Under the pieces are notes generated by a model. That model made no database searches and was not told the origin of the DNA. It saw only the letters and a list, made by a program, of their open reading frames with translations. From Spironucleus salmonicida (taxonomy: Eukaryota), in the NCBI RefSeq assembly GCF_000497125.1, contig NC_090600.1, positions 186,001 through 250,000 on the forward strand: a DNA stretch of 64,000 nucleotides, written 5' to 3'. Both the position numbers and the translations under genes were made by a program. Of this stretch, positions 591 through 59,380 are shown in pieces. The stretch's first letter is position 1; each line of letters starts with the position of its first letter.

Positions 591-1790
591 TCAGTGTGAG
601 CCAAATGCACCAACGTCGTTCAGATTCTTACCTTGTTTCATGAGGTCCCAAACAATTGAAATATCCCGGAGGCGATTAACTTCGCTGATTATTTTATCAA
701 GGCCTTCGTCAACATCTTTTTTGGTTGTCCAGCGGCTGAAACCCATTCTAACTGATGTATGTGCAGCTTCTGCAGGAATATCCATTGCATGAAGCACATG
801 GGACGGTTCCAGTGACTATGAGGTACATGCAGACCCTGTGGAGACACATACATCATCGTCGATTGCCATCATTAATGATTCACCCTCAACTCCCAAGAAT
901 GAGACGTTCATACAGTTAAGAAGTCTTTTAGTTTTATCATCTGGACCGTTGAACTTTACATGCTCTAGTTTATTGATTTTATCAGAAGCATAATTGTAAA
1001 GGCTTTCATAATGCTTATGATCTGACACTAGTTATTTTTGTGAAATCTCAGCTGCTTCTCCCAGTCCTACTACTAAAAATACCGGTAAAGTTCCAGGTCT
1101 TATATTTTGTTCTTAACCACCACCAGAAAATAGTGGGTTCAATCTAGTTCTTCTTTTCACATAAAGAGCACCCACGCCCTTTGGACCATAAATTTTGTGG
1201 CCACTAATCGACATTAAATCTATATTTTCAGTGTTTAAAGCAATTTTTCCTGCCGCTTAAGCACAATCTGTGTGGAAAACAGCACCTGCCCGCTTAGAAA
1301 TTTTTCCTAGTTCCTAAATGTCTTGAATTGAGCCCATTTCATTATTTGCAGCCATGATAGAAACCACGCCTATATCGTTTTTAAACCTATCACAGGCTTC
1401 TTTAAATTCATCCATTTTTATAAGACCTTTATCATCAACATTGATAAAATGAGTTTAATAGCCTTCCGCCTCTAATGCCCTAACTGACTCTAGAACACAT
1501 TTGTGCTCAATTGTTGATGTGATAACATGCTTTTTCTATGCATATCTTGCGGCACCTTTGACTGCAATATTATTTGATTCTGTTGCACCTGATGTAAATA
1601 TAATTTCGCTAGGTTTTGCTCCTATTAGAGATGCGACTTATTATCTTGCTACATCAACCGCTGAGTTCATTTATCTCCCTAGTTAATGTTATGAATGACA
1701 GTTTGCAAAGTTTTCAGTTAAATATGGTACTATTTTTTCTAGAACCCTAGGGTCAATCGGTGTTGTAGCTTAGTTATCAAGATAGATCAT
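591..1790 (-). CDS. NFS1: Cysteine desulfurase IscS/Nfs1
   Basis: [42 protein letters not shown] (PLP Lys), [17 protein letters not shown] (catalytic Cys); joins track fragments 591-797 and 816-1028 once TAR is read as Gln. Confidence 0.96.
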
Positions 1791-13247: not shown

Positions 13248-15854
13248 ATGGAGCAAATTTTAGAAGTGCGCATTAAGCATAATGTTTTAATATCATCTGA
13301 TTCTATACAGAAAATACCACTTACTACATAAAATTCGATATTTAAAATTAATACAGACCCGTACTACCCAGTTGATGTTATGTAATCTTAAAATTCAGAC
13401 CCATTCGCAATTCTTTATAATAAATAGAACAATACATTTCTTATTTATAATAGTTTAGATATGGAAAAACTACTGTTAACTTGTTAGGCTTTTACCCGCT
13501 CTTCTAAATTTGAAGCTTATGTGGCGCTAAAAGATGGAGTTTACCATGTGAAAGCGTTTAATAAAAAGCTTCAGAAAAACAAAATAATTTCGTTAGAATC
13601 TGTTTTTTCACTCTCTTTCAACTAGAAAAACTATCAACTAGCTGTATAAACTACAACAGATACATCAATTTTCGATCTAAATTCGATGAAAAAGCTATCC
13701 GCAGAGCAACCAAATCGTCATTACACCGAACTCATTTCGAATTCTATGACACCAGATAGCTAAAATCTCCCATAAATTCTATATAACTCCTATGGAAACT
13801 GCGAATTTTCATTGCCTGCAAAGATAAGAATTGCTAACTTTGCTGTTAATTTTGATGCATAAAAAGAACGTTAGCTCTTCGGTATAGATAACGATTTAAT
13901 ATATTATTCAGATGGGGATAAAATATACTTCTTTGATGGGATAACTGGCATGTGTATGGGAATGAAGGTTGGCTTTAATTCCCATGCAGTTAGAGTTTTT
14001 GGAAGCAGAATTTATGTGATGTCAGAACGTTAATTTCACATATATGAAATGCCTATATTCGTTAACTTCTAACAACTTCAATTCGCCGAATTTGTTGAAT
14101 ATTCCACTGGGATAATCTGCCTTAATGATGGTATTAGTTATGTTCTCGACTTCAAGTAGAATAAGACCTTCTGTTTTGAAAATTTAGAAGTTAATGACGT
14201 GATAATTCAAAGCGAATTTGTCTATTTAGAAAATGATATTTTATACATCTTGTAGCCGGGTGGTCTTTTAGAAGTTTAACCTATTATTAAAACAATGATG
14301 AGCCCATTATTTTAAGAAAAAACTGCGAATTTTAAGTTAAAAATCGATAAAGATTTATGCTTCGCTTTGGAGCTTGATGAAACTATGGATAATGTCCTGA
14401 AATAATTAGAAGATTTTTAGGTAGAGTTGGATGCTGGCGTTAATGTTGTGTAGTAAAAATTTGGAATAGGAGCTCGAGATTATTCAGTAGATGATGTTTT
14501 AAGTTTAGCAGTAATGAACATAAAATTATGTGATAATTTAATTAGCGATAGATTTTACGAAGAAATGGCACAGTTAAATGCTGCTTAAATATGTGTTAAA
14601 GAAGATTCATTGCAAGTTTCAGTCAGTGATATGAGGTCTATTGAAAAGAGTATAGAGTCTGTATAAGAAAACAAGGAAATTGATAGTAGTAAGACAGTTT
14701 TCGACTATAGTTTAAATAGTCCTATCTAAGCTGCTAATGATAGATCATAAATATCTATTACAGCAGAGACATTTAGAAGTTAGTATTAAATGTCAATGAC
14801 ATCCTAAAGATTACTAAGTAAAAAATCAATAGCCTAGTCTACTGCGATTATGCCTACTTTATAAAAAGAAAATCCCTAATTCAATTCTTCAAGAAAAATA
14901 GATGTAGTTGATTTCATTAAAAAAGATGTTTCTAACAAATTAGAATTACCTTAATAAGAATCCATAAATAAGTCATTAAATAGATCGATTTTAAGCTAAC
15001 CAGTTTAAAATATTTTAAATTCCGAACTAGATTAGTCTGGAAAAATTTTATTACCTAACAAAATGTAATCTATGCATTCTGCATCAGATTCTCGATTACA
15101 CGAATCAATTATGGATTATGAAACCGCAGAAATAGTTGTTGGATTATTTAAGGCAATTAACGATTCAGATCATTTTAGTTTTGTTAAAATTACTTCAGAA
15201 TTAAAGTATAATACTCGTTTATAGATAGCTGAAATTTACGAAAGCTATTACTAATTCTCAATTTAATGTGATATTATGACATATTTTACTGGAAAATTTT
15301 CGTAAATAGTTAGTCTTTATTTCTCACCTATGTATGATGCGTGGAGTTCTTTCCTTGCCACCTAAATAAACGAAAAATCATTTTAATATCTTATTTATCT
15401 AATCTAACCTCACGATAGAGCTAGTATTCAAGATTCATATATAAAAATAACTGGGTAAAGTTTAATTTAAGATATATCTAGTTCTCTATAAAAAAATAAA
15501 GAGTTTCTTATTAAATGGTTTACTTCATAATAAAGTAATACAAACTTGTAATACAATATTAATACAATTGATGGAATCGAGAATTTGCTTACGGAATTAG
15601 ATGTTGCCAACTATAAATCGTATATTTCGACAAACAAAATTACACTAACTACTTTACCAGAGTATTTATAAATTGCGCATAATATGAAAATTGACAGTTT
15701 TGGCATCTCAAGAAAATATGTAATTGATAATGTGCCAAATCTATAGGAAGCTTTAACAGTTCTTGTCAGTGAAAAATCCAAAGGATCATAAATTCGTTTT
15801 GATACTAAAGATTCTTCTATGAATAACTTATTAAACATTTTATGGAATAAGTGA
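13248..15854 (+). CDS. Multidomain protein with beta-rich (WD40-like?) N-terminus and C-terminal annexin/alpha-giardin-like domain
   Basis: 868 aa; LFKAIND...TRLQIAEIYESYY...FTGKFSQIV...MYDAWSSFL and IQDSYIKITGQSLIQDI resemble annexin repeats; ends LNILWNK. Confidence 0.75.
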
Positions 15855-15865
15855 TAAATAATTTT

Positions 15866-17164
15866 TCAGTGAAAAGCTTAGAGCTGGCTTTGTTATGTAG
15901 TTATTTCTAATCCTCCACTTTCACAATCACCTACATTTTCTGTTTTTCTAGACTGATCTTCTATGTGTTTAAGTCCATCTCTAGAAATATGTAGTGTATC
16001 AAACCATACGGCATACACGATACCCACGCCGAAGCCGAAGAAGTAGGCGGGCCTGAGTGGCCAGCCAATAACGTCAGGCGAGAGGGGGTTCCCTTTGTGG
16101 TCCGTGCACTTGAGTACGCCGATGATGAGGTAGTTATAGATGAACATTTGGAAGTAGGTATAGAAGGCCGCAGTGAAGGGGACGCAGAGGAGCAGGAAGA
16201 GCACAACCCACACGAACATGCGTACCCAGCGGTTCTTGCCGTCCGTGGTCTTGCAAAACCCGTCGTAGAAGATGGGGGCAAGGCGCGTTCCGGTGATCTG
16301 GAATGGCAGCCAGGCGAGGGCGGCGAGCGACCAGATGTGGTGACCGACAAGGTGGGGGTCGCGCTCGCCACCGTTGGAGAAGGGCCTGATGATGACGTAG
16401 TAGTCGAAGAGGGCGGACAAGAGGTAGCAGATCATGATGGGGACCTGGACGCCGGCGAAGAGCAGCCCGAACTTGGACAGGTCGTTCTTGAAGCCGCTCA
16501 GGTTGGCGCGCTTGAAGATGCCGTGGTTCATGAGGTTGACGAGGGGGATCCACTGGATGTAGCCGCCTATCTGGTTGAGGTTGGAAAGGGGCGACAGGGC
16601 GCGGCCGATCCAGATGCCCCAGACGGTCCAGGTGATGATCTCGGCGCAAACGCCAGCGGCGAAGGGGTCGACATCCTTGAAGAGGTGGTAGTTGCCGAGG
16701 ATGGTGTGGGAGGTGATGATGACGAAGGTGAGCAGCTGGTGCATGCCGATGAGCGAGCCGTAGGCAGGCTTGGTGAAGATCACGGTGCCGCTGGAGTCCT
16801 TGCGGGTGTACCATACGAAGTCGAAGATGGCGCACTGGACGAAGATTGACACGAAGGAGGCGGCCAGGAGCGCGCTGAAGTAGGCCGCGAAGACCACATA
16901 GCGGTTCTGCCTGGAGCACCACTCCTTAATCTTAGGATAGCCGCTCATGCACGGGAAGAAGAAGACCTGGTGCACGGCGACCTCGGTTGCGATGGAGGGG
17001 CCGTAGAGGAGCAGGTTCTTCTTGTTGAGGCCGAGCACGAGGTGGTAGAAGAAGATCATGGCCACGCCGAGTCCCATGCAGACTAATACATCCAACAACA
17101 TAGCTGGGATTGCTATAATAGCTCTTATCATCTTGGATTTACCTTCAGTCCACTGATAAGGCAT
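15866..17164 (-). CDS. Multi-pass membrane protein of unknown family, copy A (432 aa)
   Basis: Track ORF 15893-17164 extended through TAA(Gln) to TGA at 15866; about 10 hydrophobic segments. Confidence 0.92.
16008..17102 (-). repeat. Left arm of a 1095-bp GC-rich inverted repeat
   Basis: Reverse complement of 23417-24511; translations in the main, alternative and antisense frames match between copies in the ORF track. Confidence 0.95.
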
Positions 17165-17789
17165 TCGAGGAATAAAAAATGAATGTTTGAGACATACTAT
17201 TATTAGAAAATAAAATTAACTTACGAGTTTTTTCGTATACATAAACTTATATAATATTAATCATATACTGACGACTTAGTTATTGTGATTGAATTAATAA
17301 TTCAAATAATGAATATAATGGATTAATTTCATTCATATAGTACTTTTAGGTATGCGAGACCTGTAAAATAAACTGTAAAAATAATAATATGCAGAAATAG
17401 GATGATAAGCTGAAATGAATTTACTGATACACTTTATTTTGATAAATTATTGAAAAAATTATCAAAAGTGCAATTGTTTAATTATTTATATAGATAGTAT
17501 AACTTTTACAGTGGTTATTACTAGTTTAGATTGGTTGCAGATTATTATATTTTATGATATTATAGAAATAAGCAAATTATATTTGTATATTATTATATCC
17601 ATTTAGATAGGTTAATCTTATAATCAATAATGGGTTATCGAATATTAGTTCTATATATTAATAATTATTTTTGTTTGTTGTGTTGAAAGATTTTTATAAT
17701 TGCTATATAGTATTTATTAAAAATAAATTAACATTATTTTAACAACATTAATATATCCATATAACCAATAGTAACCTATCTTGAATTAA

Positions 17790-19283
17790 ATGCTGGAGGA
17801 ATTTAATTCTCTTAAATCAATAGCCAATAAACCATAAATTAACACATGTAATGTAACTATCTCTTCATGTATGCGTAATTAAATTCTTTAGTTTTATTAA
17901 CCTATTTAAACGAGTCAATGTAACAAAAACTTAGCATATTTTTTTAAAAAATGTTCGCGCAAAAATTATCAAGACTTGGAACTGCCGGAAATATTAGAAA
18001 ATTAATGGATTAATAATTTTGTTGAAAATTAACTTAATTTTAAGCTTGATTTTTTACCAGTGGAATTTGAGTATCTACGAGTCTATAATAGTGGAAAACA
18101 CATGTGTGTTTCTGCTTAAAGCTCAACAGGAAGAGTTTAAATTACAAAGTCTGCAGAAGATCCTCTAGATTCTGGATTTAAAGTTTACTACCATAAAGAT
18201 AGATAATAATTTAAAAAATTGGTATTCTTGTTTTTAGATTTTCATTAATCTCCCCTTTAATATAGTTATTTAATTAATTATTATGCAGAATTGAAGATCC
18301 AATTAGTTATACCAGATATATAACAAATTTTACATATATCTTTAAAACATCTTAAATAATCATTCATATCAGAATTAAAACAAAATCTATGTTTATTTGC
18401 TAGACATTACTCCAGCGATTTTTCAGTAATGTGTCATGGTGCTAGTAGTTATATAGGATGTTTACTGAAAAATTAAAAACTATTTACAGGTAAGTTAATT
18501 TTATTAAATCCTATAATTTCAGTACATATTCCTGAGAAATAAGAAAAACGAGAAGCTACTGTGTAAGCTGAAAAAAATAATGATTATCATGACTCATTTT
18601 CTATTCATACAGATTCTGGGAATAGTGTTGCATAAAATTCGTCGTTTTAATAATTATAAAACATAGATTCTTTTGGAAATAGTTATATAAGTGAGGCATA
18701 AAAACCGAAATAATTTACTATTAAAATGATGCCTATAATTAAATTACGTACAGAAACATTTATTGCAAATCTTTAATCGAATGACATAGATATGATTATT
18801 GAAGAAGAAAACGAAACGGCATAATTAGTTGAAATCATTGATGAAGTTATTTAATTAGTTTATCAAGAATAAAACGTATTACAGTTATTTGGTGAAATAA
18901 ATTATAAACCTAGAAAATCATTAGAATAATTCTAAGGTATTACAAATTTCTTTAGACCACTTTAAGCTTAAATTAAAGATTTAAAATCATCATTACCCTT
19001 GATGTTAGTTATGTGTAATGCAAGATTAGTATAAAATTATATGGAAAATATGCCCTAGAATAAAAAATTCTATAAGTAAATCATAAATTTCCTATTTATT
19101 ACTAGATAATCTGTGACAATACCATAAAATACAATTATACTAGTAGGAAGTCATAATAGATTTCTAAATAATACACTTTTACGTAAATTGTATGCTTGTG
19201 AAAATATTACAACTAGAACTATTCTAGGAGTGGGGTATGATGTTTTAATGTCGGCTTTTTAGACTGTAGCTAAATTTATTTGA
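17790..19283 (+). CDS. Alpha/beta-hydrolase-fold-like protein, probably degenerate
   Basis: 497 aa; LVFLFLDF...LVIPD...FSVMCHGASSYIG...KLILLNP...IILVGSHNRFL...GVGYDVL. Confidence 0.6.
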
Positions 19284-20041
19284 TTTTTGTATTATTTCAC
19301 TCCTACAGCTATTCTTAAATGTAGTTTAAATACTGTATTATATTCTATTTCTTGTTTCCAAAAATATTATTATCTACTATTTCTGATAAAATAGGTTTTA
19401 AATAAATTTATTATTTATTAGTGAACCATCTTTAATAAATAATTTCTCATACATATCTTACAAATGTGATCAAAGTTCTACATCTTTAATCGCTTTTATG
19501 AAAGAAATTAAATCATCATTACCATTTTCTGAATAATATTTTATTATTGGGTCAATATTGAAAGATTATAATAACTGCAACCATATTAAATCTAGAATTT
19601 ATAGCTAGTTATTCAGTCTGGTAGTCTTAAACTATGATAAACATATTGTGTATATCTATAATTGAAGTTAAAAATTAAAGAAAGTTAATCTTCTAGATTT
19701 TAAATTTATTATTGCCCTTAATGAAATCTAAACCTGTGATAAAGGCCATGAGTTTGTAGTTTTTAAATTTATAGTAAAAAATGGTAATATGTATCTGATT
19801 AAAAAGAGCTATAAAGTAATCGAATACTATAAATATTATCCAAGTCTCATAGGTAAGTAATCACCAACGACTTTTAAAATAATATAATATCATATAAAGT
19901 AGCATAAGAACAAATGCAAGACTAATAAATTACTTAAGGTTTATTAAAACGTAATTTCCTCGAGTTCAGTCGTGTTAAATATTAACTTATTATGATATAA
20001 TTTATCTAAATAGCGTAAAGTAATATCTCTTTCCTAATTAA

Positions 20042-20326
20042 ATGAGTTTTATGCAAAAGGGCCGCACACCTGGAAATTTCTATAATATGGTTGACTGGAC
20101 CTCTTGCTAAACTTAAGTTGCATATAAATCAAAATGGAACAAGGGTTTTGTTACAGATTTTGCCAGATAGCGTAGCCGCGATGAGCCAATATTTTATGTT
20201 GGAAACGAATCATGGGGCTTAATAAACTCTTGGAATTCTTGCTAATCCTCAAAAATCACTTGCTACTAGCCAGTTCGCAAACCAATAAACACGAATATCA
20301 AGAAACGACCTTCAACTGCAAAGTGA
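20042..20326 (+). CDS. Hypothetical protein (94 aa)
   Basis: Open frame MSFMQKGRTPGNFY...RPSTAK, ends AAG TGA. Confidence 0.65.
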
Positions 20327-20368
20327 CTAATATTATTTTATAGTATATACCATTAAAATTTTCAGATA

Positions 20369-20797
20369 ATGACATCTGAACTAGAACCTACTACGAATGC
20401 TCAAACTGAGCAGATCCAGCCATAATAAATTTAACAACTATAAGCTGCACCAGTAGTCTAAATTTCAGCGCCAACACAGCTTTCTGCCGACTAAATTTCC
20501 CCAAAACGAATGCGCTAGAAATTTAATTGCAATTTGCCATGTTCATCTGATTGTTGTGACTTATTCTTTGCAAATTCGCCAGCAACTGATGAAAATAATT
20601 GCTGTTTGGCGACCGGAAATTTCTTTTGCGGTTGCGGTCTAATTTGCGCTGGATTATGCGACTGCGGAAGCAGTTTTTAAAAAAGTGATTTATGCTGCGC
20701 TGGATGGGGTACATTTGTGCTTAGCTTTATAGGGTTAGGGTGGATCATTGCGATTTTATAGAGTGTGGCCATAATGTGTGAAGATGGAATTTGGTGA
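20369..20797 (+). CDS. Cys-rich membrane protein, SPEC3/Stum-like
   Basis: 142 aa: Q/P-rich N-terminus, GNFFCGCGLICAG...CCAGWGTFVLSFIGLGWIIAILQSVAI. Confidence 0.7.
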
Positions 20798-20837
20798 AAA
20801 ATGTATTATTATATAATATTATTAGTATTATGTATAA

Positions 20838-21368
20838 ATGAGTGGTTTTGACCGCCTCCCAAAATCATGTCAAAATAAAGTTATTAAATCCTATATTAGC
20901 CCTTAGACTAATCATCAACTTATTTTAGATGGTTTTCTAGATAAATTAGATAGATAGTTGATCCCACTCAATCCAAATTCACCTTTTGAGCCTCGACTGG
21001 ATTCAAAGCAAATAAATGATCCTGTTTTATCTATTAATTTAGAACTCGAGAAGAAGAGATAGGAAGCATATGATGCACGACCAAAATTTGATTTTTAAAA
21101 AAATCCTTATGGTAGGATCCGGCATAAGAAAGTTAATTACCAACCAGCAACTCCTGATAACTAAAAGCGCCTTCTACATAATGATTACGCTATCTCTGCA
21201 TAGTTGACCACTAGCTAAAATCTTCGATGTTCGCTAGAAAAAATTGGGGGTGTAAATTTGACCTAGAGCATGAAATTAAGAAAAGTCTAATGCCGATATT
21301 TGGATAGATATGAATTCAATAAAAAGATAATTCGATAAGAAGAATAAGTTGAAAAAGAAAGAATCTGA
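20838..21368 (+). CDS. Hypothetical protein (176 aa)
   Basis: Open code-6 frame MSGFDRLPKSC...EKERI. Confidence 0.7.
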
Positions 21369-21521
21369 AGATCTTTTGTAAAAATATTCTATTTTTATTT
21401 ATATTTAAAGTTATGGTTATATAAATAATTACATCTAAGTGGAAACAATAATTTGTATATATAAATTAAATGAAATAGTATTTAATAATATACTTATTTC
21501 TTTTTCCATTCCTTAAAGGAG

Positions 21522-22637
21522 ATGGCTACAGCAATTGTCTTATGCTCTGGTGGTTAAGACTCATTGTTAGTTATTAAATTATTGTAAAAAGCTGGGATTA
21601 AGATTATTGCGATTAATTTCATTTCATATTTCTTTGGAGGGCCATCTAAAAAATTAGACTTATTGGCAAAAGAATTAGATATCCCGGTTGTTTTTGTTCC
21701 ATTTCAACAGGCACAATTATAAATTACAATAGATCCTAAATTTGGTAGAGGTAAAAATTTTAATGCTTGCATTGATTGCCATGCCTTGATGATTAAATAT
21801 GCCGGTTCTTTGTTAAAATAATATAATGCTGATTTTATAGCTACTGGAGAAGTCTTAAATTAAAGACCAATGTCTTAAAATATGGCATCTTTGAAGAAGG
21901 TAGCTAATGAATCTGGATTCGGAAATTTATTAGTAAGGCCTTTATCAGGGTAACTTCTTGAAATTACAGAAGCTGAAACTTTAGGTTTTATAAAGAGAGA
22001 AGATATGCGTTCAATTTAAGGTAGATCATAAACAGGATAAACTACGTTAGCCGCAGAATTAGGGATGAGCTATATGATGTCTGGACATGGTGGTGGATGC
22101 TTATTAACTGATTAAAATTTTGGCCGTAAAATGAAAACTGTTGAGACAGATGGATTTTTAAAGGCTACTTCCTTCTTGCCTTATATTTTATAACATTCTA
22201 GATTTTTACGAATAGATAAAGGTAAATACGCGTTCGTTGGTAGAAATCATGAAGAAAATTAATTATTCACACCATTACATAAGTTTGGTACAATATTTAT
22301 AGCAGATGCAATTACTCCTGGCCCTAGAATACTTTTAGTAGAAATGAATGAAACTGAATTGATTTATACACCAGTTTAGTAGGATATTGAAGATGTTGAA
22401 TTAGAATCAGGCAAATGCTAATCTTGTAACAGCTAATAGGATTTCAATATAGAATGGCTTTCTGGTTCATACGAAGCTAGTTAATAGTTATAAATAATTG
22501 GTAAAGAAATATATTCTATATTTTCTAAACATAAAGGAACTAAAGGTGGTTAAGTTTTAATTAATGGAATTTTATCAGATTTTGAGTCGGTTACTATTGA
22601 AAGGAAGGCTGAACTTACAAATTTAATGATTTAATGA
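21522..22637 (+). CDS. Bacterial-type ThiI/MnmA-like PP-loop tRNA sulfurtransferase
   Basis: AIVLCSGGQDSLL (PP loop), PKFGRGKNFNACIDCH, ADFIATGEVLNQRPMSQ, LLVRPLS, GGGCLLTD, FVGRNHEEN. Confidence 0.88.
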
Positions 22638-22644
22638 TTTTTAA

Positions 22645-23103
22645 TCACTTAACATATTTTCTATATTATCTATAATTCAATTTTGATTGATATTAATCTG
22701 GTCCTGGTGTTAAATCTATTTAAGGCTATTAATATTTAGATTTAATAAGTATTTCTACACCTTTACTACACTTTATATTATACTAATTCGGAGCAGGGGT
22801 TAAATCTTATTTAAAATACTACCTTCTACACTTAAATACATTCACCTACTATTAATTACATTAAATAGTATTATTTAAAGGTGAATAATCTTAAGAACTA
22901 GGAGTGACAAAATTTGTGCATCTTCTAATAAGTTGTTAGCTTTTTGGTGGTAATTTAGATTATAAAGTATTAAAAGACGATCTTATATTGTATGCTCCTG
23001 GGCCAGGTGTAATAAAATTATTAGATTAAAAAGTCCGACAATGCAGAGTTGATGTATGAGAAATTCTTTTATTTAAAGGTAACATATTATTCAAAGAACT
23101 CAT
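22645..23103 (-). CDS. SHIPPO/ODF3-type PGP-repeat protein
   Basis: TPGPGAY, TPSSQDY, TPAPNQY and TPGPD repeats. Confidence 0.85.
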
Positions 23104-23345
23104 TTTTATAAATATAAAATAATAATAAAAATATAAATACATAATTTATTTATTTCATGTAAATTTTTTGCAGAACTAGTAATATTATATACTTATAGTC
23201 ATTATTTAAATATGAAAATGTTTTGTGATTTTAGATTTACAATAGACAATAAATCAAATGAAATAAATATCAGCACGTTAATTTGATTATTCTTTAATCA
23301 TTGTTATATTACTAGTATAAATTCAATAACGACATAAGTCAAATA

Positions 23346-24665
23346 ATGGTAATAAATGAGTTTATACATGACAATGCTAAGAAAAAATCATTAAGATGTT
23401 TTGTTGCTATATTCTTTATGTTGTTGGATGTATTAGTCTGCATGGGACTCGGCGTGGCCATGATCTTCTTCTACCACCTCGTGCTCGGCCTCAACAAGAA
23501 GAACCTGCTCCTCTACGGCCCCTCCATCGCAACCGAGGTCGCCGTGCACCAGGTCTTCTTCTTCCCGTGCATGAGCGGCTATCCTAAGATTAAGGAGTGG
23601 TGCTCCAGGCAGAACCGCTATGTGGTCTTCGCGGCCTACTTCAGCGCGCTCCTGGCCGCCTCCTTCGTGTCAATCTTCGTCCAGTGCGCCATCTTCGACT
23701 TCGTATGGTACACCCGCAAGGACTCCAGCGGCACCGTGATCTTCACCAAGCCTGCCTACGGCTCGCTCATCGGCATGCACCAGCTGCTCACCTTCGTCAT
23801 CATCACCTCCCACACCATCCTCGGCAACTACCACCTCTTCAAGGATGTCGACCCCTTCGCCGCTGGCGTTTGCGCCGAGATCATCACCTGGACCGTCTGG
23901 GGCATCTGGATCGGCCGCGCCCTGTCGCCCCTTTCCAACCTCAACCAGATAGGCGGCTACATCCAGTGGATCCCCCTCGTCAACCTCATGAACCACGGCA
24001 TCTTCAAGCGCGCCAACCTGAGCGGCTTCAAGAACGACCTGTCCAAGTTCGGGCTGCTCTTCGCCGGCGTCCAGGTCCCCATCATGATCTGCTACCTCTT
24101 GTCCGCCCTCTTCGACTACTACGTCATCATCAGGCCCTTCTCCAACGGTGGCGAGCGCGACCCCCACCTTGTCGGTCACCACATCTGGTCGCTCGCCGCC
24201 CTCGCCTGGCTGCCATTCCAGATCACCGGAACGCGCCTTGCCCCCATCTTCTACGACGGGTTTTGCAAGACCACGGACGGCAAGAACCGCTGGGTACGCA
24301 TGTTCGTGTGGGTTGTGCTCTTCCTGCTCCTCTGCGTCCCCTTCACTGCGGCCTTCTATACCTACTTCCAAATGTTCATCTATAACTACCTCATCATCGG
24401 CGTACTCAAGTGCACGGACCACAAAGGGAACCCCCTCTCGCCTGACGTTATTGGCTGGCCACTCAGGCCCGCCTACTTCTTCGGCTTCGGCGTGGGTATC
24501 GTGTATGCCGTGTGGCATGATTGTACAAATTTAGCTAATATTCAATATATATAGAGTCGAATAGATACTCCAATAGATAGCAATCGTATATCTAATTGCT
24601 CAAAACATATATTTGAGGCGTCTAACAGTGTATCAATCTCTTTTAATGAATAGATAACCTTTTGA
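23346..24665 (+). CDS. Multi-pass membrane protein of unknown family, copy B (439 aa)
   Basis: Track ORF 23346-24554 extended through TAG(Gln) to TGA at 24663-24665; core identical to copy A. Confidence 0.92.
23417..24511 (+). repeat. Right arm of the 1095-bp GC-rich inverted repeat
   Basis: Runs TATGTTGTTGGATG...GTGTATGCCGT and matches the reverse complement of 16008-17102. Confidence 0.95.
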
Positions 24666-37355: not shown

Positions 37356-40300
37356 TCAGTCACTCAAACTAGCGAATAAAGCCACAGACCTCTTAATCCA
37401 GTGCCTGGCACTTCCAGATTGACACGGAACAGCCACATTAAGTAAGAAATTTGTTGAATGCCCAGTAGTGCTTAAAGTACCGAATCTGGCGAGAGTTCGG
37501 TAGCACGGGCAGCAGTATAAATTGTCATCGACATCAGTATTTTATGCCTCTTTAGATCCGACAATTATAGGAATTAAGCGGATAATTGGCATTTTAGAGT
37601 AAAGTTCACGAGGACGTGCCTCTACTAACATTCCCAGTTCCATATCGAATCTCGAGGCTTCTAAATAAAGCCCAGAAATATAAGACCCATCGTTAAGAAC
37701 ATCTGGTTAAAATGCTGAATTACCAGCAGTGAAGATCCTTGCCTCTAAAACGTTTTTATTTTCAATTAGAGCTATATCATCAATTGTGGCTTAACAGATC
37801 TCAAAATTGTAGCCTATTGTATCAATTGCGATTGTATACTTACGAGCATAATTCTATAAGACTGATGTCAAATAACCTTAAGCAAAGAAAAATGAGGAGA
37901 TGTGGAAGATTCCTGGCTTGCCTATTTCGATCCAATTTCTAAAGAAGCTAATACGTAAATTCATATCTTAAAGATAGGAAGAAAGTGGTTTTAATGATGG
38001 ATATGAATATTTAGCGAAAGCTTCTGGTAGCTTGTTCATCATTACAGATAAAAATATATCTTCTAGTTCTGATGAGAGAATTGTAAGGCCCCGTAGAGCT
38101 CTTACAAGTTCCTTTAGGTTTAATTGCATTGTATCAATGAGTACATTAAATCTACCACATTCTTGGACTAAAAGCGAGTTCAGAGATTCTTCAAAACGGG
38201 TAGGATATCTAAGTGAGATTGCCTCTAAATCGAATGAGTCCGGTAGTTGCTTGATGATACTGTTGATTACGTCCGTTTCAGAGTTAACTGGTGCAGATTC
38301 TGTATTTGTTTCTTCCTTAGAAACAGCATCATCAAGTTTTCCTGTTTAAAGGATCAAAATCTCAGTTAATAAGTTGTTAGAATCTTGTCTATCAGATGTG
38401 ATATTGGAGTTGGTGTTTAAACCAAGATTATTAGGATGACATTCAATTGAAACGTGATCATTAATGTATTCTAAATAGTCTCTATAACCTAAGCCATTTG
38501 TAAGTTGATGTAACAAATATTCAGGTGTTTCAGATGTTTTTTATTCCATAGTAGGGAAAATCCAATTTTCTTAGAATATTGATGGATTCAAGAAATCTTC
38601 AACAATTGCACTAACACAACGTTAATCAGTAGCATCTGTAACGCAACCTCCAATATTTATTTCAGCGAAAAGATATTATAATGCATGTTTAGGATAAATA
38701 TCAGGGTATTTGTCTAAGAAGATTGGTAATTACTAAATACAAATACCTATGTCTGCGGCAGACCAAGGATAAGGTGTGTTGAATCCAATTGGACCATACT
38801 TTTTCCGTTAGAGTAATACCGAATAGAATAACGATAAAGAATATGTTAATTTCTTAAATTTCTCCATATTCTCAGGTACTTCACATGCTTCATTCATTTA
38901 TTTCTCAGTAATATTAGTTTCCCACACTCGTAATAAATTAGCTTTAAGCGAGTTCGGATTTTCAACAGAAACTTTGACTGAATTTTGTAATATAGCAACT
39001 GGAAATTCAGGAGTAGGTTATGCTGACAACCATAAACGGAAATCACGATGAACAGATGCAGGATCTGCTTAAAGCGCTTCTAATGTTAATTGTAATTATT
39101 TTAAGAAACCTACAGATAAATGACAGTTTTGTAATACACACCAATTACCTCTCTCAACAAATGTTGTGACTAAGTTTAATGCAGTTTTTTCAATTCCACG
39201 ACCTAATGATAATACTTATATCTTTTTATCCATGCGCATTTGCTCAGCAAACATCATAAGATCATTAATAGGATCTGCCATATCAGCTAACAAGAATAAT
39301 ATAGGTTATATATTATTAGAATCCTTATAAGATTTTTCTAAATTGAATACTTATGGCTTGTTGAAGTCAGCACCCAATGTCTTTTCGATAAATATCCTCA
39401 TATATGCTAAAACCCTATCTGGACGTAAAGTTGAGATGGGTAAAAATCTCTAGAATTCAGACAGTTATGTGTCATAAGGGGAAGGCAATGCACATTCTTC
39501 TGGCTTCTATGATTCAAACATATCCTTCCAAGCTATTTATGCCTTTAAATCTCTGAAAGAATGAGATATTCCTTTAAATGCTGATCCTAAACTTTCTAGT
39601 TCACAAATAGACTTCCAATATTTCTCTTCTAACCAATCGTTGCATGGATTTTATGATGTAGCCTCACGCATCTTTGACCCTATTAGTAAAAATTTCATCT
39701 CTGTATTAGTAATCTTATTTTCAGATTTCAAGATTCTAAGAGCGATTAAGAAAGCAAATAATGGTTTATGCGACTCAAACAAAGATCTGCATATATTTTG
39801 ATACAGATAAAGAGTAAATGCTTCTATAAGGTTCTTTAAGCGAGTTTCTAAATCATCACACTATTCAGTACCTTAAATTGATTAAGTATATAGCTAAATG
39901 TACCAATTTAAAGAATATTGATACATAAATTCAATTTTAACAAGATCTTAAACGCAAAAATACAAAATAGATGCCCTATTAGACATTGGGACATACTTTT
40001 AACGAGTTTAATCGATCTCTGCTTCAGTTATTTCAGACTCTTTGACTTTTTCGGTAATCTCCTTTGACGTCTTCTAGGAAAGAGACAATGTATCAATAAG
40101 TGTTTCATTTTATAAAATATCACCTGTCGATGTAGATAACAGGTAAAGTACTTTTTCAGATAATTATTTAAGTTCTAAACGCATCTTACTATTGCTTACT
40201 ACTAGACTAGCCTTGAGAGCCTCTTGGTCGGGTCTTTCTAAAGCGACGAGAACACCTAAAAGCTAATCAGATAGACCTAATTGAGTAATAGCGAAGTTGA

Positions 40301-43300
40301 TTACAGTTACTTTAACAAATGATTCTGCTGAGTAATTAGGATTGGCTAAATGAGTACAGAGATATAGTTTGAATGATGGATTATAAGGTATAGCTGAATC
40401 ACCCAATTTAACACATATTTAGTTTGATGCGTCTTTAATGAAATTCTAATCTAAAACTGTGTTAAGAGATGGATCTATTTCATCAGTAACATTAATAATT
40501 AATAATATTTTACCAAATCTAATACAATTTTCTAATGTTCTTAATAAATCTTTATCCGAGGCTTTTGCTACTTCAAGACCTTACTCTTTATAAAAATTCT
40601 TTAAAAATTATTGTGCTTATTGTTCTGGATCTATTAGCAAGCAGTATTTTTAACTAGTAAACATAAAAGAAGAGTTTTCCATAGAATGAGTATCAGATGG
40701 TAGTTTATACTAATTAATGTAATTCATAATCGTAACGTCATCTGATAAGATATCTGTTACTTTCATATTTCCATTCTTTTCAGTTGATGTTGGTATTTAT
40801 AATTCATTTAGTTTAGCAACCCAGTCAATAGAAATTCTATACCTAAAATCGCTAGTAAATGCTCCTTGATAAATAACCGCAGACGCCCCAAATAAATTGT
40901 CACCTAAAATATGTTTGATAGATTTATCTAGTTCTACAAGTTATTCTTACCATCTTACTTATTCTCCAGACAGTGAAACAATAAGTGTCTGAGCTCGATC
41001 AAGTCTTTTAGCAGTATCATCTACTTATAATGACAGTTATTCTTTCTACTCAACAGCTTTATTAAATTTGTCTTCTAATTCTGCGATTTTATTTTCCACT
41101 TCTGTTAGTCTAGCAACTGTCTCTGATAAACTCTTTTCGACAATAACTAATTCTTCTTATGCCTCTGAAAGTTTTTATCTTTTAGGTATGACCTATAAAT
41201 TGATATGATAGTATTTATACATAGCAATTACGAAAGCACAAAGACCTGCTGCCGCTAAAGACTTCTTCTACATCTACTATGGTATAAATTCAGGATCATT
41301 AATATATTTGTGAAGTTTCTTGATTGTATCCGCAGGAATGTTAGATTTATCATAGGTTCTAAGACTGGTCATCATAGTAGCAGAAGCATTTAACAATTTT
41401 TTAGCTTCGTCCCAATAATCTTCCATTTATTTACCCACATTATTAGGGTCGTTGATCTTTTTAGGTTTTATGCTAAAAAGAATACAAACAGACTCCATAC
41501 ATTACTTAACCGCCGCAGGTGGATTATTGTATGAGCCAAGTTCAGTAAAGTCATTCTTGTTAAGTTTGTCAAGAGCTTCTAAAGCAGCATCTAACAGTGG
41601 CTAAGCCTATTCTAAATCTCTTTCCGCATCTTTTTTAATTGTATCACATTCATTAAATTTACTAGACGCAACTTATTTCTCTCTAGCCACAATTTACCTA
41701 GTTTAATCTGCTTACTCTTTATCTTGTTCTAACTAGACCATCATATTATCTACATTAGCAGATGTCTCAACTAAAACTGGTTATAAATTAGTAAGGTCAA
41801 TTTACATTTAGGCAACTTTTTCTTATGTTTCTTTTAATTTGAATAGACCAGTTGATAATTACATTTTATAGCTATTAATCTTATTATAGTTAACTTGCAA
41901 AACAGAGGTGAAAAGTTTTAACAAATTTAAGAATAATGTTGGAGTAACATGATTAAATCTACCTTATTCTTCTTTATACAACTACGTAAATGATTCTATT
42001 GAAGAATGAACATAAACACAAAATTCTATAATTTTGTCTTAAATAGATTATTTAGTAAAGTTAGTATTTAATACACATTATTCTTCAATAAATTTTCCTA
42101 AAAATTCTAATTATGATGTATCTAGTAATCCACCAGCTTCTTAACCTCCATTAAAGTTAAATATTTAGATACCTACATCTTTAAGAGCATCGGATGGCCA
42201 ATTAAACATATAGTCTATCGAACAACAATTTACCAATGATGGGAACTTTCGTAAACGATTTCTAAGGCTAGTACCAGATGGGGAGAAGCACAATACTAAA
42301 TGAATATTTTATTTAACTCTAGCACAATACGTATCATATAAGTTAGGTTTTGTAACTGGTAATTGATTTTCCATGCATATTTAAGATATTGAAGCTTCTT
42401 CATAAATAGTAGCCAAATCGGCAGGTTCATATATTGCCTACACATCACATGTATTTAACAATATTGAAATATCTTCCAGTTATTAGTCATTAAATATGTG
42501 TTAGTCAGACAGTAATAAAATTTATTATTTACCAGTTAAACCAGATTTCATAACAAACTTCTTGATGTCTTCGTGCCATTCGGATATTCCATATCCCTTC
42601 TTTAACTCAATAGTAACTATGTCACAATTTAACCAATACGCAGCTAATCTAGTCAAAGACTAACGACCTACACCACCTACACCAATAAGTAATATATTAG
42701 ACGATGATTGACGAAGAATTCTAACTACCCTAGACAAATGATGTACAGCAGATTTAAATAAAACTAAGTTCATTTATTAACCCTCTTCGTTACATTTATT
42801 CAGCTCTCCGACTAAAATTTTCTGTAAAGCATTAAAATCAGTAACATCCTAATAGAGTCTATCCTATCCTATAGACAAGAAATCTGCGAACAAAATATCT
42901 TCAACACATCTATCAGTGCCGAGAATATCAGATGTAGCAATCGATAATTTCGAAATTAGAACTTTATCAAGCAGCTAATTGAACCATTTTTAGTCATTCA
43001 CATCGATTAACCTGTCAGAAAACACTCTTTAGGCCTCGTGAATGAACAAGGTAAGTATGTTATTTGTGCATTATTTAGGTTTTAACTGGACACCATTTAT
43101 ATCATTTGCGATAGATTTTGGCTCGACCATCAAAAAGCCTTAAAATAACTTGCTCAAGTCACGCAAATTAAATGTATAGTGAGTCTTAGCAGGAGTTGGT
43201 AAAAGGCCAGTTCTTGTTGAATTATAGACTTCTATTCCCATTGGAACTACTTTTCTGCACATTTGAATCATTGGAGATTGAATCTCTTCGCTGAAAGAGG

Positions 43301-46300
43301 AAAAAGATTTACAACTCCACCAGTCCACTATCTGGTCGAAAATACTGAGTAAAATTGTGTCGCTAAGCTCTAAAAAGTTGATGATATTGTAGTGCCTCAG
43401 GAGCCTTTGAGTGACTGGGTTTCTAGATCCCCCAGATTGCACCATTGCACCTAATTGCACAGTGTCAATAATTTGCTTGAAAACTATTTCTTTAAGGTCG
43501 TAAAAACCTCCATGACATATCAGCTGCCGCAAAAATTCATGTGAATTGATGCATCCATAGCGTTCTTTCATCGGTAAATTTAAATCATCAACAAACAAAA
43601 CAAATTTTTTAGAGACTGGAGGGCCGTAAATACCTCTTCTGCGTTTTTCTACCTTAGAATCTAGATATTGTTGTACTTATCCAGCTTGTGTGTTAGCAGA
43701 AAACGTTAGGAATAATGGTGAAATGAATTTTGTATCTGTTTCATGCTTTAATAAGTAATTCTTAATAACTGCAGTCTTTCCTGAGCCGGTAGAACCTACA
43801 ACAAGGGTCGGATATCCATTGGACACCAATCTTCTTAATAGATAAGATTATTAGATGTTACTAGCAGTTGGGATGATAAGCTCTGAAAGGCTAATTTGAG
43901 AAAGTTAATTCTTACCTTTTATACCTCTAAGCATGATCGAATCTAAGTTAATATCTTTGAGATTTGTGCTCCAAGATATCCAATCACAAGTGATAGAACT
44001 AGAATAGACTAAGTTTTCTAAGTTTTTAGTATCAAGATTTTCTTGAACGATTTTTTCTGCAATTTAATCATAACTATCATATTTAAACATGAAATCGAAA
44101 ACGGAAGAATATTTATCGTCTATTTGCATAGGTATAGAGCAATCGGATAAGTATCCTAGTTCGCTAATTTTTCCTCTCAACCAGCAGTCAAAATTGGATC
44201 TGCTAGGGTCATCAGCCAAAGACGCCCCAACTGACCAAATTAGGCTGAAAAAGAATATTGGTTCTAAATATCTCATGAAAACAGCAATTTACCAAGCTTC
44301 TATTGCACCAAAATCGTTCGGTTTTAATTCGCCAATAAACGTATCCAATATACGGAATAATGAGGTGATTAAATTGGCATCCATAGTTTCTTATAATTGT
44401 TTACAATTTACTTTAATATATGCTAATGACTCAACTAAAAATTAATTCAACAGTTCTTTGAAACGTAAGGCTAATTCTGATAGTTTTTCAGTTTAGTTAA
44501 ACTTGGTGATAAATGTAGATTTGTTGGTTATTTAACCTTGTGTACTAGGATCGAAATCATCTAATCTTAACTAGTCTGGTAATCGATCAATCCATGTTTA
44601 AATAAATGCATCTGGCGATAGAGTTCCAGTAACAACTAACTATCCCACAGATTCTTTAGTTGTACCAACAGAAACTATGTTAAGTGATGTATAATACAAC
44701 ATTGCGCATCTTGAAATTGTAGCAGGTGAAGCTTCAACAACAGAATCCATGTTAAAAACAAGATTCATAACAGGCGATAAGCAAATGATTTCTCCAGAAG
44801 TTAAACATAAACGTTTTGAGTCATCGAGCACAGTGTTTAAAGATTCTATCCACAATGAATCAATATAACCACAACAATCAATAATTTACCTAGCAGCATT
44901 ATTCTTTGAAACGCAAACTTTAGGGTTAACATCTGCAAAGGTGATTTCACCACCTTAATATGAACTTCTAAGTAGGTTTTATTCATACCAAACCATATGC
45001 TTATTATAATCGGACACTGCATTTCTAATGAGTGTAGATAATACACCATCTTACCATTCTTTAGAAACTACATCAAACTAACCAAATAATTAGTCCATGG
45101 TGATTGATTTTGGATTTAATCTAACGATATTCATCTTTTAGAAATAATAATCTTCACCTATAAGAGATGGTACTTAAGAAATTGATAAAGTTGGTTAATT
45201 TTTGCATATTTTAATGAATTTTTCAATTCTTTCTTCCATTTCTCTACGATTAATTCTATTTAACGAATGCATAAGTGCATACAAGCTTTCCGCCTTACCA
45301 GATTGTGCAGAACCTAAAGTCATTAATCCATGTCGTAAATTAATAGTCATGAAAAGATCTATAATTTTATTTACAAATTATTCATCTGGTTATAAGTAGT
45401 TCATTATATTGCTGCGTAGAACTTAAGTTACTTCTTTAATTAGTACATTATAATCGATAAATGGTTATTTGATTCCAGGGAATAAATCTTTTAATATGTT
45501 GTAGAATAACTAAGAATCATTTTACAAAAATTTAGGAGAGTTTACTTCAGTAATAGCTCGTAAAACAATCTACTCTTCTAAATAATATTTCTCATCAAAG
45601 ACAACATCACCTTTCTCGTTAATACTAGAAGGAATTTAAGAATTCTCCTAAACACATAAGGTTCCTAATTCCTATCTTATATTACCAGCAGCTTGAATAG
45701 TTGAGTTAATAGCTCTCATACCATAATCATACCAGCTTTATTACGAAAGTTACTCAGAACAAAGTTTAAATACAGATGTTGCTTTTTATGCTAAATTAGT
45801 AGCTTTTTTAAAGCCATATGAATAAAGTCTTATCTAACATATTTTCATGTAGTTAGGCACCATGACTGATACAGCACGGAAAAGAGCAACTAAATTTGCA
45901 GGCAATTTCTAACGACCAGAATAGTTAGGATTTTATGTAATAATAACACACGCTGTAGACATAAGGTTCAACTCAGCCTGTTCAAATACGTACTTGACGG
46001 TTTGCATTTCAGCAAATGTTTTTCCTTTGGGTGGAGTTCGTATGGTTGATCCACCGCACATTTGTAAACCTCTTTATACACCTAAAACCATCTATGCAAA
46101 TACTGACAATACATCTAAAGACAAACGATTGATTTCGTCCATGATCAAGCAGCCTCCAGTAGAAATACATCCTGAAAGCATTCTCTTAATACCGATTAAA
46201 TCTAAACCTTCAGAGCAGTTAAATACTATACAAACTAAGCCAAACTCTTTATTTGTCATTTATTTAGAAGTTTCAGTCTTACCAGAACCAGCGGGACCAG

Positions 46301-49300
46301 AACAAGCAGAAAACTTGAACATAGCTTAAGATTGAGAAATTGTAGTATAAATTTTAAGTGTTAATGGTGTGATAACTAAACGTTGTGTATTACCTAAATA
46401 TTCATATGCATAAGGTAAAACCGATAATACCTAATTATAAGAAACCAAAAAATTTTCGGTTTTAGAGCTTATATCAGCTAAATTATTAGCTTATTCTTGA
46501 TATTTTTCAGCAGCAATAGGGCCATTATAATAATTATCAGACACACCATGAATGGGTTAATCATAAAATTCAGCAATATTACAAATATGTTTAGGATGTT
46601 TTAACCAATTAAAGTCGGAGACATCTGTGACTCGTTCTGCAATTAAACCAACAATTTAATCTCTCTGGAACACGTCATAAGTAAGCACAGCAGAATAAGT
46701 CTTTGACTCTAATTTCGTTAAACCAGTTCTCACAATTTCTGTCATAGAATCCAACTAGAGCTCTAGTTAGTCACGATATTTCTCTAAATATTATCCAGTG
46801 ATGGCATAATCAGTATCATTTGCAAAAGCAATTTAATTTACCAAATTAATACCCTGAGCAAATCCAGATTTTACCCACAAAGCACGTCCTTAAACGCCAT
46901 CTCGTGTGACTGCCTGCACATACTTTGTGAAGCACTCTTAACATCTAACTTGAACGGTTCTGATAATTAATTTTTCAAGTTGTCCCATCCAGGATTCAAC
47001 GTTTCCAGAAGGTGTTAAAGGATCTACAAATTACACTATTTCGCCTTCATGAGACGTCATAGAGGTCATTTAATAATCATTATCTTCAATAAATTTGATT
47101 CTTGCAACATTTTCAAAGCAGGATCTTAAAAATGGCTATACCGCTGTTGGATTTTTAGTATTAGATAGTATTGAAAGTAATTCTTCGTCTGAGAGGAAGA
47201 AAAATCTTGGGAACGCGATTCTTTTTGTTTCCAAATAATCTGCTAAACCCTTTTGCACTTTTTCTAGACTTTAATGATTCTCCTAGAGATTTGGCAATAA
47301 TTTAGAAGTTTCAGTACAAATTTATATCACATTTGGATTTTTGTGTGCTTTAGCCATATGTGTTCTCCAAAATGTGTCAACTGATCTAAAGAGTTTAGAT
47401 TCTGTGGGAAGTTATCTAACAATATCTGGAGAACTAAAAATAGGTTCTAAATATAACCAAGCTTATTAAACAGATATCCACGCTTCTATTATTTCAGATG
47501 TTAAGGATAGATTTTGCTCCCATTAAACAATAGACTTTTCGAAAAATTTCTTAAATGGAGAAAACATCATAGATTAAATCATGGTGATGTTGTCATCTAA
47601 AGTTTAAATCACATCATCCAAGCCTTTTAATATATAACACCCAGAGTTCTAATATTCCATTAAAGTAAAATTAATATCAGCCCAGGTTTTTTCTAATTAT
47701 ACTAATACCTACTCTATGGTATTTTCTTTGCTGGCAGCCTCAGAAATCCTTTAAATAACTTCAAAGTTTTTCATATCATTTAAGTGTAATGTATCAACAG
47801 CTTATTTAAAAGTAAAGTTTACAGGTTATTTATTAAGCGTGTTAATTTCATCTTGAGACATTATACTATAATCAGTCTCAGATGCTTCATCATCCCCAAA
47901 TTTTTAAAGTTCTATTCCATTAATATATCTTAAGTTATTTAAGAACTGACCAGTTTCTTCTGAAATTCTAAGCCAATGTCTTCTACGAAGACCTGGATTT
48001 CTTAATGCCTTTACCAAGGGTACATTCTTTTTGAATTCTGTGATTTCCTTTTTAACTTACTCCGAAAGTTCCTTAACAACTGGTTAATTTTCTTTAACTG
48101 ATCTTAAAGATTTAATAATGTTTCTTTATAATGTATCGACTATGGACTCAATTTCGTTTCCATTTAAAGCCTTAAAATCTTCATTATATACTTTATGAGT
48201 TAATTATCTGAAATCTGAAACACTTTTCCAAAGTAATTCTTATGGCTCGAAATCTTTTAAGATTTAATCTAATTAAGAATAGTCAGTTTATTAAAGTCCC
48301 ATTAATAATTCTCTTTAATTATATAACTTAGATTTTTCTTAGATTTTAGCAAGTTATTATGTCATAAGTTCAGTTTCTTCGGATGCTTAGATATATTCGT
48401 CTAATGATTTATATCTAATAGCGAATGTTGTGACTTATTTTGCTAAAGTTTCTATATTTTTAGCCATTGAGTTCTACTCTTAAGATTGTTAATCTCTAAA
48501 CTTAACTTTGTCTAATTCTACAATTTAACATGTCCTATTAACTAAATTTTTGAGATCTAAAGGATACCCAATTGTTTTCCATCTTTAGGCAATTCCGTTT
48601 TCACTCATTTAAACAAATAGTTCATCTAAAATAGCATGATATTCTGCCATTGTTTGAATATTTATTTTTACACTATTCGTAAGTTTTTCCATCTTTTATT
48701 GGATAAATTCTTCTAGCTTACAAGCATCTTCAATTGTATTACATTTTCTTTAAAGACGTTTTTAAATTGTACAATACAGTTGACCAATTTAAGTCGCCTT
48801 AGTGCTTGCAATTTTTTAAACGATATCTTAAACATGTTCAGCAAGTCGTTAACATTTTGAAGCTAAAAAATGTCTAACAGCTGTGTTTTTTACAATAAAT
48901 GCACCGACATGAATAAGATCAGGAATTTCTGACATAATTTTTTTTGCTTAATTCATCTATTAATATACAAGATTTCTGAGATCTTATGGAGACATAGACG
49001 TAGCAGAATCAACCGATGCTTACATATTGGGACTAAGATTTTACTAAGGAATATTGATAGTTTATCCTTATGTCTCAAGTTATTCTCTGAGATAAAGTTC
49101 TGCTTTGTATTTGATTGTTGATGCCCATTTATCTTCATCAAGAACTAATAAATCTCTATATGACGAGAATTATTTTAGATAATCGTTTAATGGTTATACA
49201 ATATTAACACAATATTATTAAATTTATATACGCTGAGCCTCAAACTAAAATTCATCCTAGCTAGGTGAAGCCAGGAATGACTTTTCTTATTTAATAATAT

Positions 49301-51389: not shown

Positions 51390-51871
51390 ATTTTAAAATT
51401 GCGGAAAGAATAAATTTAATATTAAAATATATATATAATAATACTGTTTAGCAGTGATACTAAATGTTATATCTTTATAGAAAAGCTTTTTTAAAGTTAA
51501 AATTAAATAGCAATTCCTATAAATTTTAATTTAAAGATAAATATAGTTAATTTCATACTTAAAAGATTTTATACCTAAAGAATCTTATTTGGATATAATT
51601 TTGAATAGATAAAGATTCATACACATGCTAGTAGTTAACATAAATTATTATTATTATTATTATATTAATGAAAATTGTTATTCAAATTATTGTATCAATT
51701 ACATAGAAAAACTAGTATGAGAATATTTGATAACAAGTATCTATTAAATAATATTTCAATATAATTCAGTTAAATTGTATAATAATATTGTATAGCTTTA
51801 AAACAGTTAAGTTTTGCATAAGTATAATTCAAATATTATGGTATTGTAATTCATAATAAGCCTAATTTAAA

Positions 51872-55122: not shown

Positions 55123-55183
55123 CTGAAGTATAGTTTATATATAAATAAAATTTTACGTTGTTCTCATAGAGAATACTATTTTA

Positions 55184-59242: not shown

Positions 59243-59380
59243 TTAATGAAGTGGACAGAAAATATCGATTTACCATAGTATACTTTATTATATAAATTTA
59301 TATAAAAATATTAAATAAAATATATTTTCTTAAATTATATATAAATTCATATTCATATCGTTTTCATTCCTGCAACAGTT

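Follow-up and report, generated by a model that had tools for sequence, protein, structure and literature searches.

In a 64,000-nucleotide stretch of the Spironucleus salmonicida genome (NCBI RefSeq assembly GCF_000497125.1, contig NC_090600.1, positions 186,001 to 250,000 of the forward strand; called the window below, in whose own coordinates all positions are given), two head-to-head (divergent) open reading frames (ORFs), here called genes A and B, encode a diplomonad multi-pass membrane protein and share a central tract of 1095 bp that is identical letter for letter and much richer in G+C (GC) than the surrounding DNA. Both the identity and the GC richness end inside the genes, at nearly the same codons. 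The best reading of these observations, and probably the correct one, is that A and B are old paralogues and that ectopic gene conversion, biased towards G and C, has acted on their core over a long time. The elements involved are listed here in the order of the DNA, the ORFs being read in genetic code 6; GC3s is the GC content of synonymous third codon positions, and X1 is a short-read run.

15866..17164, minus strand: gene A, 432 amino acids, P0001, multi-pass membrane protein keeping the SRDG-type C-terminal family motif
15866..16007, minus strand: C-tail of A, apparently unconverted, AT-rich (GC3s 6/45), conserved residues on A/T-ending codons
16008..17102, minus strand: arm A, spanning codons 22-386 of gene A; GC-rich core (GC3s 0.89), identical to arm B at all 1095 positions
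17084..17102, minus strand: margin of arm A, 6 codons, identical but not GC-rich; change-point at codon 28, identity from codon 22
17103..17164, minus strand: N-terminus of A, apparently unconverted, AT-rich (GC3s 4/18)
17103..23416, no strand: single-copy spacer, 6314 bp, 27% GC, with both 5′ ends and several unrelated ORFs inside; spanned by one X1 contig
23346..24665, plus strand: gene B, 439 amino acids, P0003, homologous N-terminus and strongly diverged C-tail without the family motif
23346..23416, plus strand: N-terminus of B, apparently unconverted, AT-rich (GC3s 4/23)
23417..24511, plus strand: arm B, the same GC-rich core at codons 25-389 of gene B; one 1095-bp contig in X1
23417..23435, plus strand: margin of arm B, identical but not GC-rich, counterpart of the margin of arm A
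24512..24665, plus strand: C-tail of B, apparently unconverted, AT-rich (GC3s 9/49), homology weak beyond ~20 codons

The inverted repeat and its support in sequencing runs

An earlier, sequence-only reading of this DNA had described the arms as reverse complements without differences in the stretches it compared, and the base-by-base comparison agrees: there are 0 mismatches in 1095 positions, and the first mismatches stand directly outside both arm edges (16007/24512 and 17103/23416). This perfect inverted repeat is the sole long repeat of the window and is coding throughout, and the proteins of both genes are on record. Overlapping ORFs are also present in other frames of the core, but these are treated as by-products of its high third-position GC.

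Perfect identity would also be obtained if differing arms had been collapsed to one consensus during assembly or polishing, a danger that the sequence-only reading had itself raised. Contigs drop variants, and X1 may be the source of the window DNA, so a few differences between the arms may go unseen. However, the core is present in X1 as a single contig of exactly 1095 bp with no alternative letters, and all four arm junctions are seen there: one contig consists of the spacer plus the entry into the core at both ends, and two further contigs contain the 3′ junctions. The depth of the core contig is 230, against 143-168 in the contigs beside it, values too rough to be read as copy numbers. Additionally, two other near-identical pairs of the same family (C/D and E/F, described below) keep one or two core differences, which shows that near-identical copies can be told apart in this assembly, and the step in GC would not be created by collapse. 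Consequently, gross collapse of the arms is unlikely, and we give very little credence to such an artefact.

Four of eight listed runs were examined, and no run containing this DNA is recorded as RNA. In two runs that we guess to be RNA, a contig joins the 5′ end of A, the core and the tail of A, which agrees with the assembled orientation. No contig with the unique termini of B was found in these two runs, but contigs drop minor forms and silence of the gene is not implied. The stop of gene A and that of a convergent ORF of 868 amino acids are only 11 bp apart (15854-15866), a spacing that supports the code-6 end of gene A. Both 5′ ends lie in the spacer, so that its inversion by crossing over between the arms would swap promoters and N-termini onto the other C-tail.

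Base composition changes at the edges of identity

The GC content of the arm is 0.59 (648/1095), compared with 0.29 in the rest of the window, where the highest 500-bp window reaches 0.42; all 200-bp windows with at least 48% GC fall on the two arms. As had been noted from the letters alone, the excess lies mostly at third codon positions, GC3s in the core being 0.89 (306/344) while GC at first and second positions is 0.51 and 0.38, and the DNA outside the tract is AT-rich again, with a GC3s of 0.17 (23/135) in the four termini pooled. The background was taken from 11 other genes of the window, which were picked for the purpose (six with Pfam hits, one with a named homologue, two long ORFs without a convincing family, and two that, from the look of their sequences, we take to be a phosphatase and a leucine-rich repeat protein); their pooled GC3s is 0.225, with a range of 0.17-0.32. 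At fourfold degenerate sites, GC in the core is 155/179 (0.866) versus 631/3369 in the background, a log-odds shift of 3.3 (95% confidence interval 2.9-3.8).

The GC excess at near-neutral sites is thus coextensive with the homogenised tract, and a likelihood change-point analysis of GC3s in copy A places its limits to within a few codons. At the 5′ side the change-point is at codon 28 (support 28-33), while identity begins at codon 22; at the 3′ side it is at codon 386 (support 381-388), the same codon in which identity ends. The steps are therefore ~6 and 0 codons from the edges, in line with the distance of ~25 bp that had been proposed. The six identical but AT-rich codons of the margin could represent a recent extension of the conversion tract. 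Along the core, GC3s sinks slightly from the middle towards both edges (central half 160/172, remainder 146/172, p = 0.024; Spearman correlation with edge distance, p = 0.003). Conserved residues just beyond the 3′ edge are encoded by A/T-ending codons, which argues that GC tracks the repeat and not protein constraint.

Codon bias linked to expression, the other alternative raised by the sequence-only reading, was also considered as a source of the high GC3s, and fails against the published preferred codons. Highly expressed S. salmonicida genes have GC3s values centred at ~0.4 and prefer GCU, GGU, CGU, UCU, GAA and similar codons (PMC1805757; papers are cited by such numbers). The comparison was confined to ten amino acids for which the leading codon of the highly expressed genes has A or U in third position (Table 2 of PMC1805757). 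For these, the core uses GC-ending codons even where the preferred codon ends in A/U, the latter being chosen in 18/183 cases, in contrast to 2384/3917 (61%) in the highly expressed genes.

The sharp compositional edges, together with the absence of TAA/TAG among the glutamine codons of the core (0/9), might suggest lateral transfer of the core from a GC-rich donor, followed by duplication. However, CAG would be expected under a GC drive anyway, homology runs through the AT-rich termini of A, and a further five clusters and members, from S. salmonicida or Hexamita inflata, make up the named relatives, so that such a transfer is scarcely credible. As expression, protein constraint and lateral transfer fail to account for the composition, we are led to a process tied to the homogenised repeat, that is, biased conversion or a mutation spectrum linked to recombination.

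A family of pairs and the age of A and B

A profile search returned 20 proteins among 1.84 billion, nine of which were looked up; these contain two named clusters, from S. salmonicida and H. inflata, and S. salmonicida “transmembrane domain-containing proteins” are the closest relatives that carry a name. In S. salmonicida the family has six members, arranged as three pairs on three contigs, so that, at the level of the family, the further copies that the sequence-only reading had proposed to look for do exist as two near-identical pairs. In one of them, C/D (P0002/P0004, accessions KAH0571891/KAH0571842, on one 1.67-Mb contig), there are 2 residue differences between A-positions 33 and 388, while identity in the termini is 36/72; in the other, E/F (P0009/P0030, accessions KAH0570897/KAH0570889, on one 1.61-Mb contig), there is 1 difference in 395. 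The final profile search added no relatives, and no sister-species pair was found in the profile and relative searches. The idea that P0002 and P0004 are orthologues from another species was dropped in favour of paralogues within this genome; among 8000 scored candidates, the IFT74-like gene of the window has no separate S. salmonicida entry and, besides its own record, matches H. inflata at 56% and one further protein at 53%. Several near-identical copies on different contigs also occur in H. inflata (P0008, P0027, P0028 and P0029), P0029 having an unrelated C-terminus and P0028 being a fragment.

The age of the A/B pair is suggested by the contrast between core and termini. A and B are identical at 365/365 core positions and at 13/65 positions of the termini, whereas A and D, which lie on different contigs, are identical at 234/364 and 29/65, respectively (Fisher p = 0.005); the core identity between A and C is 64%. 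As the A-B termini are no closer than termini compared across chromosomes, the pair looks old, and, judged from these distances, its duplication appears to be older than the identity of the core implies. The core tree unites the members of each pair: C/D and E/F have 100% bootstrap, and the distance between A and B is zero.

The C/D tract (33-388) starts and stops where the GC content of A/B steps up and down (28-33 and 381-388). These shared limits may either have been inherited from an ancestral pair or be set where protein constraint fades, the last long helix being placed at 374-393 in the AlphaFold model. Of the C/D core differences, two can be polarised; both are changes of GC-to-AT type on the side of D (V to I and P to L), as expected if new mutations stay AT-biased, an observation that with n = 2 is anecdotal. 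In E/F, the amino-acid make-up is strongly of GC type throughout, tails included, with a GARP/FYMINK ratio of 1.77 compared with 0.54-0.75 in relatives, which suggests a GC drive strong enough to alter the protein.

The C-tail of B lacks the SRDG-type motif, which A, D and distant members of the family have retained. It may be that copying keeps the core of gene B intact in a gene that is otherwise decaying or has changed in function.

Probable biased conversion and the points that weigh against it

In the mechanism that we favour, two old head-to-head paralogues would undergo concerted evolution in their conserved transmembrane core. Purifying selection would keep the core similar enough for pairing, and ectopic arm-to-arm conversion, whose product we observe as identity and whose recurrence we infer, would repeatedly erase the differences, while the loosely constrained tails would have become too different to pair and have left the process. 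If mismatches in the converted tract were resolved more often to G or C, this bias, acting over a long time, could have raised fourfold GC from ~0.19 to 0.87. The excess of C over G would come on top of this, from a strand bias or from ordinary selection in favour of codons ending in pyrimidines.

Several points weigh against this scheme. To begin with, both the bias and the repetition of conversion are deduced from identity and composition. Of what the sequence-only reading had proposed, namely old duplicates with a core homogenised by GC-biased conversion, the age and the homogenisation are supported by the termini distances, the further pairs and the GC step at the edge of identity, while the bias is read from the composition. 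Moreover, symmetric GC-biased gene conversion is expected to yield equal C and G, but the C:G ratio at fourfold sites is 122:33 in the core versus 353:278 in the background (p = 1e-7). Both GC classes are raised in the core, with log-odds of 3.7 for C/T and 2.6 for G/A; a second force is nevertheless needed, plausibly the preference for pyrimidine-ending codons seen in the highly expressed set, and for this reason we describe the bias as one that works like GC-biased gene conversion. The size of the shift is also a difficulty, since with two interacting copies a value of 3.3 needs a bias of 97% per event, far above the 70% of primate palindromes (PMC8981503), although bias acting at the level of a large recombining population would likewise produce a large shift.

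Other difficulties concern the termini and the relatives. The earlier claim that the flanking proteins are homologous but diverged holds for the N-termini, where the homology between A and B is significant in shuffling tests (p = 0.0004 local, 0.0003 in register) and that of B to the family is as well (p = 0.0002-0.001). By contrast, the homology of the C-terminus of B is weak: the local protein comparison gives p = 0.52, the first 12 residues in register give p = 0.008, and the first 62 nt of the tail have 27 matches versus 18 expected (p = 0.008). A tail of 51 codons is expected by chance 40% of the time with TGA as the only stop. The age of the pair rests on distances, as trees of the termini reject no pairing (approximately unbiased test, p 0.30-0.71), and faster evolution or relaxed selection on the B termini could lengthen the distance of B. 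By eye, the termini of A seemed to go with those of D and the termini of B with those of C, but this too is unsupported, as all three topologies fit the data. Lastly, amino-acid composition, from which high GC may be deduced through the proteins, points to it for E/F only and not for C/D.

Some of these difficulties would be relieved if the tract were homogenised by conversion but owed its GC to a different mutation spectrum in recombining or repeated DNA, produced by GC-biased repair synthesis or by a smaller loss of C to T. This possibility explains the coincident edges equally well, could account for the C-over-G asymmetry as a strand-specific mutational signal, and avoids the very high strength needed for biased conversion between two copies; regional mutation differences are, in fact, listed as a possibility in PMC1805757. 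On the other hand, the two polarisable C/D differences are of GC-to-AT type, a weak argument, and the observed-to-expected ratio of CpG (0.94 in the core, 0.71 in the background) shows no sign of a methylation contrast, although other spectra are left open by it. We consider a distinct mutation spectrum a rather unlikely source of the composition.

The weak homology of the B tail and the C-over-G excess have also to be weighed in relation to a single recent event, in which a gene already GC-rich through codon or mRNA selection overwrote or seeded the second copy once. One such event would explain the perfect identity, and highly expressed genes do have a C-over-G excess (965 C : 56 G, PMC1805757). 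However, fourfold GC in those genes is ~0.32 and they prefer GCU, GGU, CGU and UCU, which the core avoids; the termini of A are AT-rich, conserved residues included; and the C/D pair has the same tract limits. Furthermore, as a general trend, orthologues of high-GC3 genes are lower in GC3 in S. barkhanus (PMC2874811). For these reasons a single event seems improbable to us, and long-term biased conversion is still the better account.

A more specific and speculative variant, to which we give only a low probability, is that GC content is set by the number of mutually correcting copies, and not by the rate of conversion, in a binucleate and largely clonal cell. The cell has two diploid nuclei (PMC9509377), so a single-copy locus would amount to 4 interacting copies and a two-locus tract to 8, with the bias compounding as (p/q)^(n-1). 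With the 70:30 bias of primate palindromes (PMC8981503) and a background of 0.187, a Moran-type calculation predicts a fourfold GC of 0.872, compared with the observed 0.866 (155/179), a match that may be coincidence, as it is one data point and the model assumes clonality, equal allelic and ectopic bias, and neutral sites. If it were true, it would account for the observed edges being steps and not slopes, and three-locus tracts would be predicted at ~0.995.

The protein and the neighbouring genes

Hydropathy indicates 7 clear membrane segments in protein A, and the AlphaFold model has ~10 long helices (mean predicted local distance difference test score 76, predicted template modelling score 0.77). 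From this predicted topology of ~7-10 helices with polar residues we guess at a probable role as a channel or as a transporter of small solutes. Pfam gave no family for A or B, and none matching more than one of 22 family members; a sequence search of the PDB gave 0 hits, and Foldseek 0 hits at E <= 0.001. The wide fold search with VIA had a designed helical barrel as its top match (Z 8.5, root mean square deviation 6.5) and others at Z < 5, nothing usable, and the best value in the ESM Atlas, 0.79, was below its lead level.

The window as a whole is intron-poor eukaryotic DNA in code 6, in which the following genes are found, among others; the dynein heavy chain has about 4.8 thousand residues.

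591-1790, minus strand: class-V aminotransferase, presumably cysteine-desulfurase-like, AT-rich third positions
21522-22637, plus strand: ThiI-like/tRNA-modifying HUP-domain gene in the spacer, GC3s 0.17
22645-23142, minus strand: small ORF with a PGPGAY-type motif
37356-51704, minus strand: dynein heavy chain, AT-rich third positions
57917-59356, minus strand: mu-adaptin, AT-rich third positions
61438-63054, minus strand: IFT74-like gene, AT-rich third positions

We take the small ORF with the PGPGAY-type motif to resemble axonemal PG-rich repeat proteins. Short look-alikes of it occur elsewhere in the genome (contig loose ends near 22671 and 23061), and a similar motif is also present at 54595-55660.

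Relation to known systems and significance

The core of A and B belongs to the same phenomenon as the GC islands and duplicated regions already described in S. salmonicida (PMC1805757, PMC9509377). In 2007, sharp GC shifts and genes with high GC3 were reported in this organism and left unexplained, as neither mutation nor selection fitted them easily (PMC1805757), and the islands are less pronounced in S. barkhanus (PMC2874811). More recently, duplicated regions were found to have 44.7% GC versus 30.7% (PMC9509377, 2022), and GC-enriched conversion tracts have been described between Giardia lineages (PMC12669663). In the available text, however, neither PMC1805757 nor PMC9509377 ties a GC step to the edge of an identity tract at base-pair resolution or names biased conversion, the latter bringing up conversion for the expansion of surface antigens only. 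No paper joining Spironucleus with biased gene conversion was found in a search of the literature outside subscription journals, and passages of PMC3916229 and PMC7641422 contain nothing further on the matter. The mechanism is textbook and the association of duplication with high GC is published for this species, but the magnitude is unusually strong.

Similar arrangements are known from other systems. For instance, the palindromes of primate X chromosomes also have inverted arms that are >99% identical and higher in GC than their flanks (PMC8981503), but their arms are long and the contrast is of ~5 points (46% vs 41%), compared with 30 points here, a GC3 going from 0.17 to 0.89, an arm of 1.1 kb and edges inside ORFs. 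In duplicates from the yeast whole-genome duplication and in opsin mosaics (PMC3924837), purifying selection likewise preserves one region as a substrate for conversion and the parts under weaker constraint are freed from it, giving one gene pair two histories, although no compositional step of this size at a tract edge is described in the passages available. Closer in phylogeny, pairs of Giardia vsp genes (PMC2996952) are likewise diplomonad, inverted (head-to-head or tail-to-tail), identical and a few kb apart, with an abrupt point of divergence. These pairs, however, encode cysteine-rich surface antigens and are identical over the whole ORF plus 139-729 bp of flank, while in A and B identity ends inside ORFs for membrane proteins that are not vsp products and match no Pfam family; in the available text of PMC2996952, the terms “gene conversion” and “G+C” do not appear.

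The A/B core therefore offers a test case, resolved to the base pair and internally controlled, for the high-GC3 puzzle posed in 2007 (PMC1805757). If long-term biased conversion is the correct explanation, its implied strength would be far above that of the primate case, identity between copies in such regions should not be taken as a sign of recent origin, nor a high GC content of a gene as a sign of transfer or of high expression. GC islands would instead map long-term recombination from copy to copy along the S. salmonicida genome, the surface-antigen families included.

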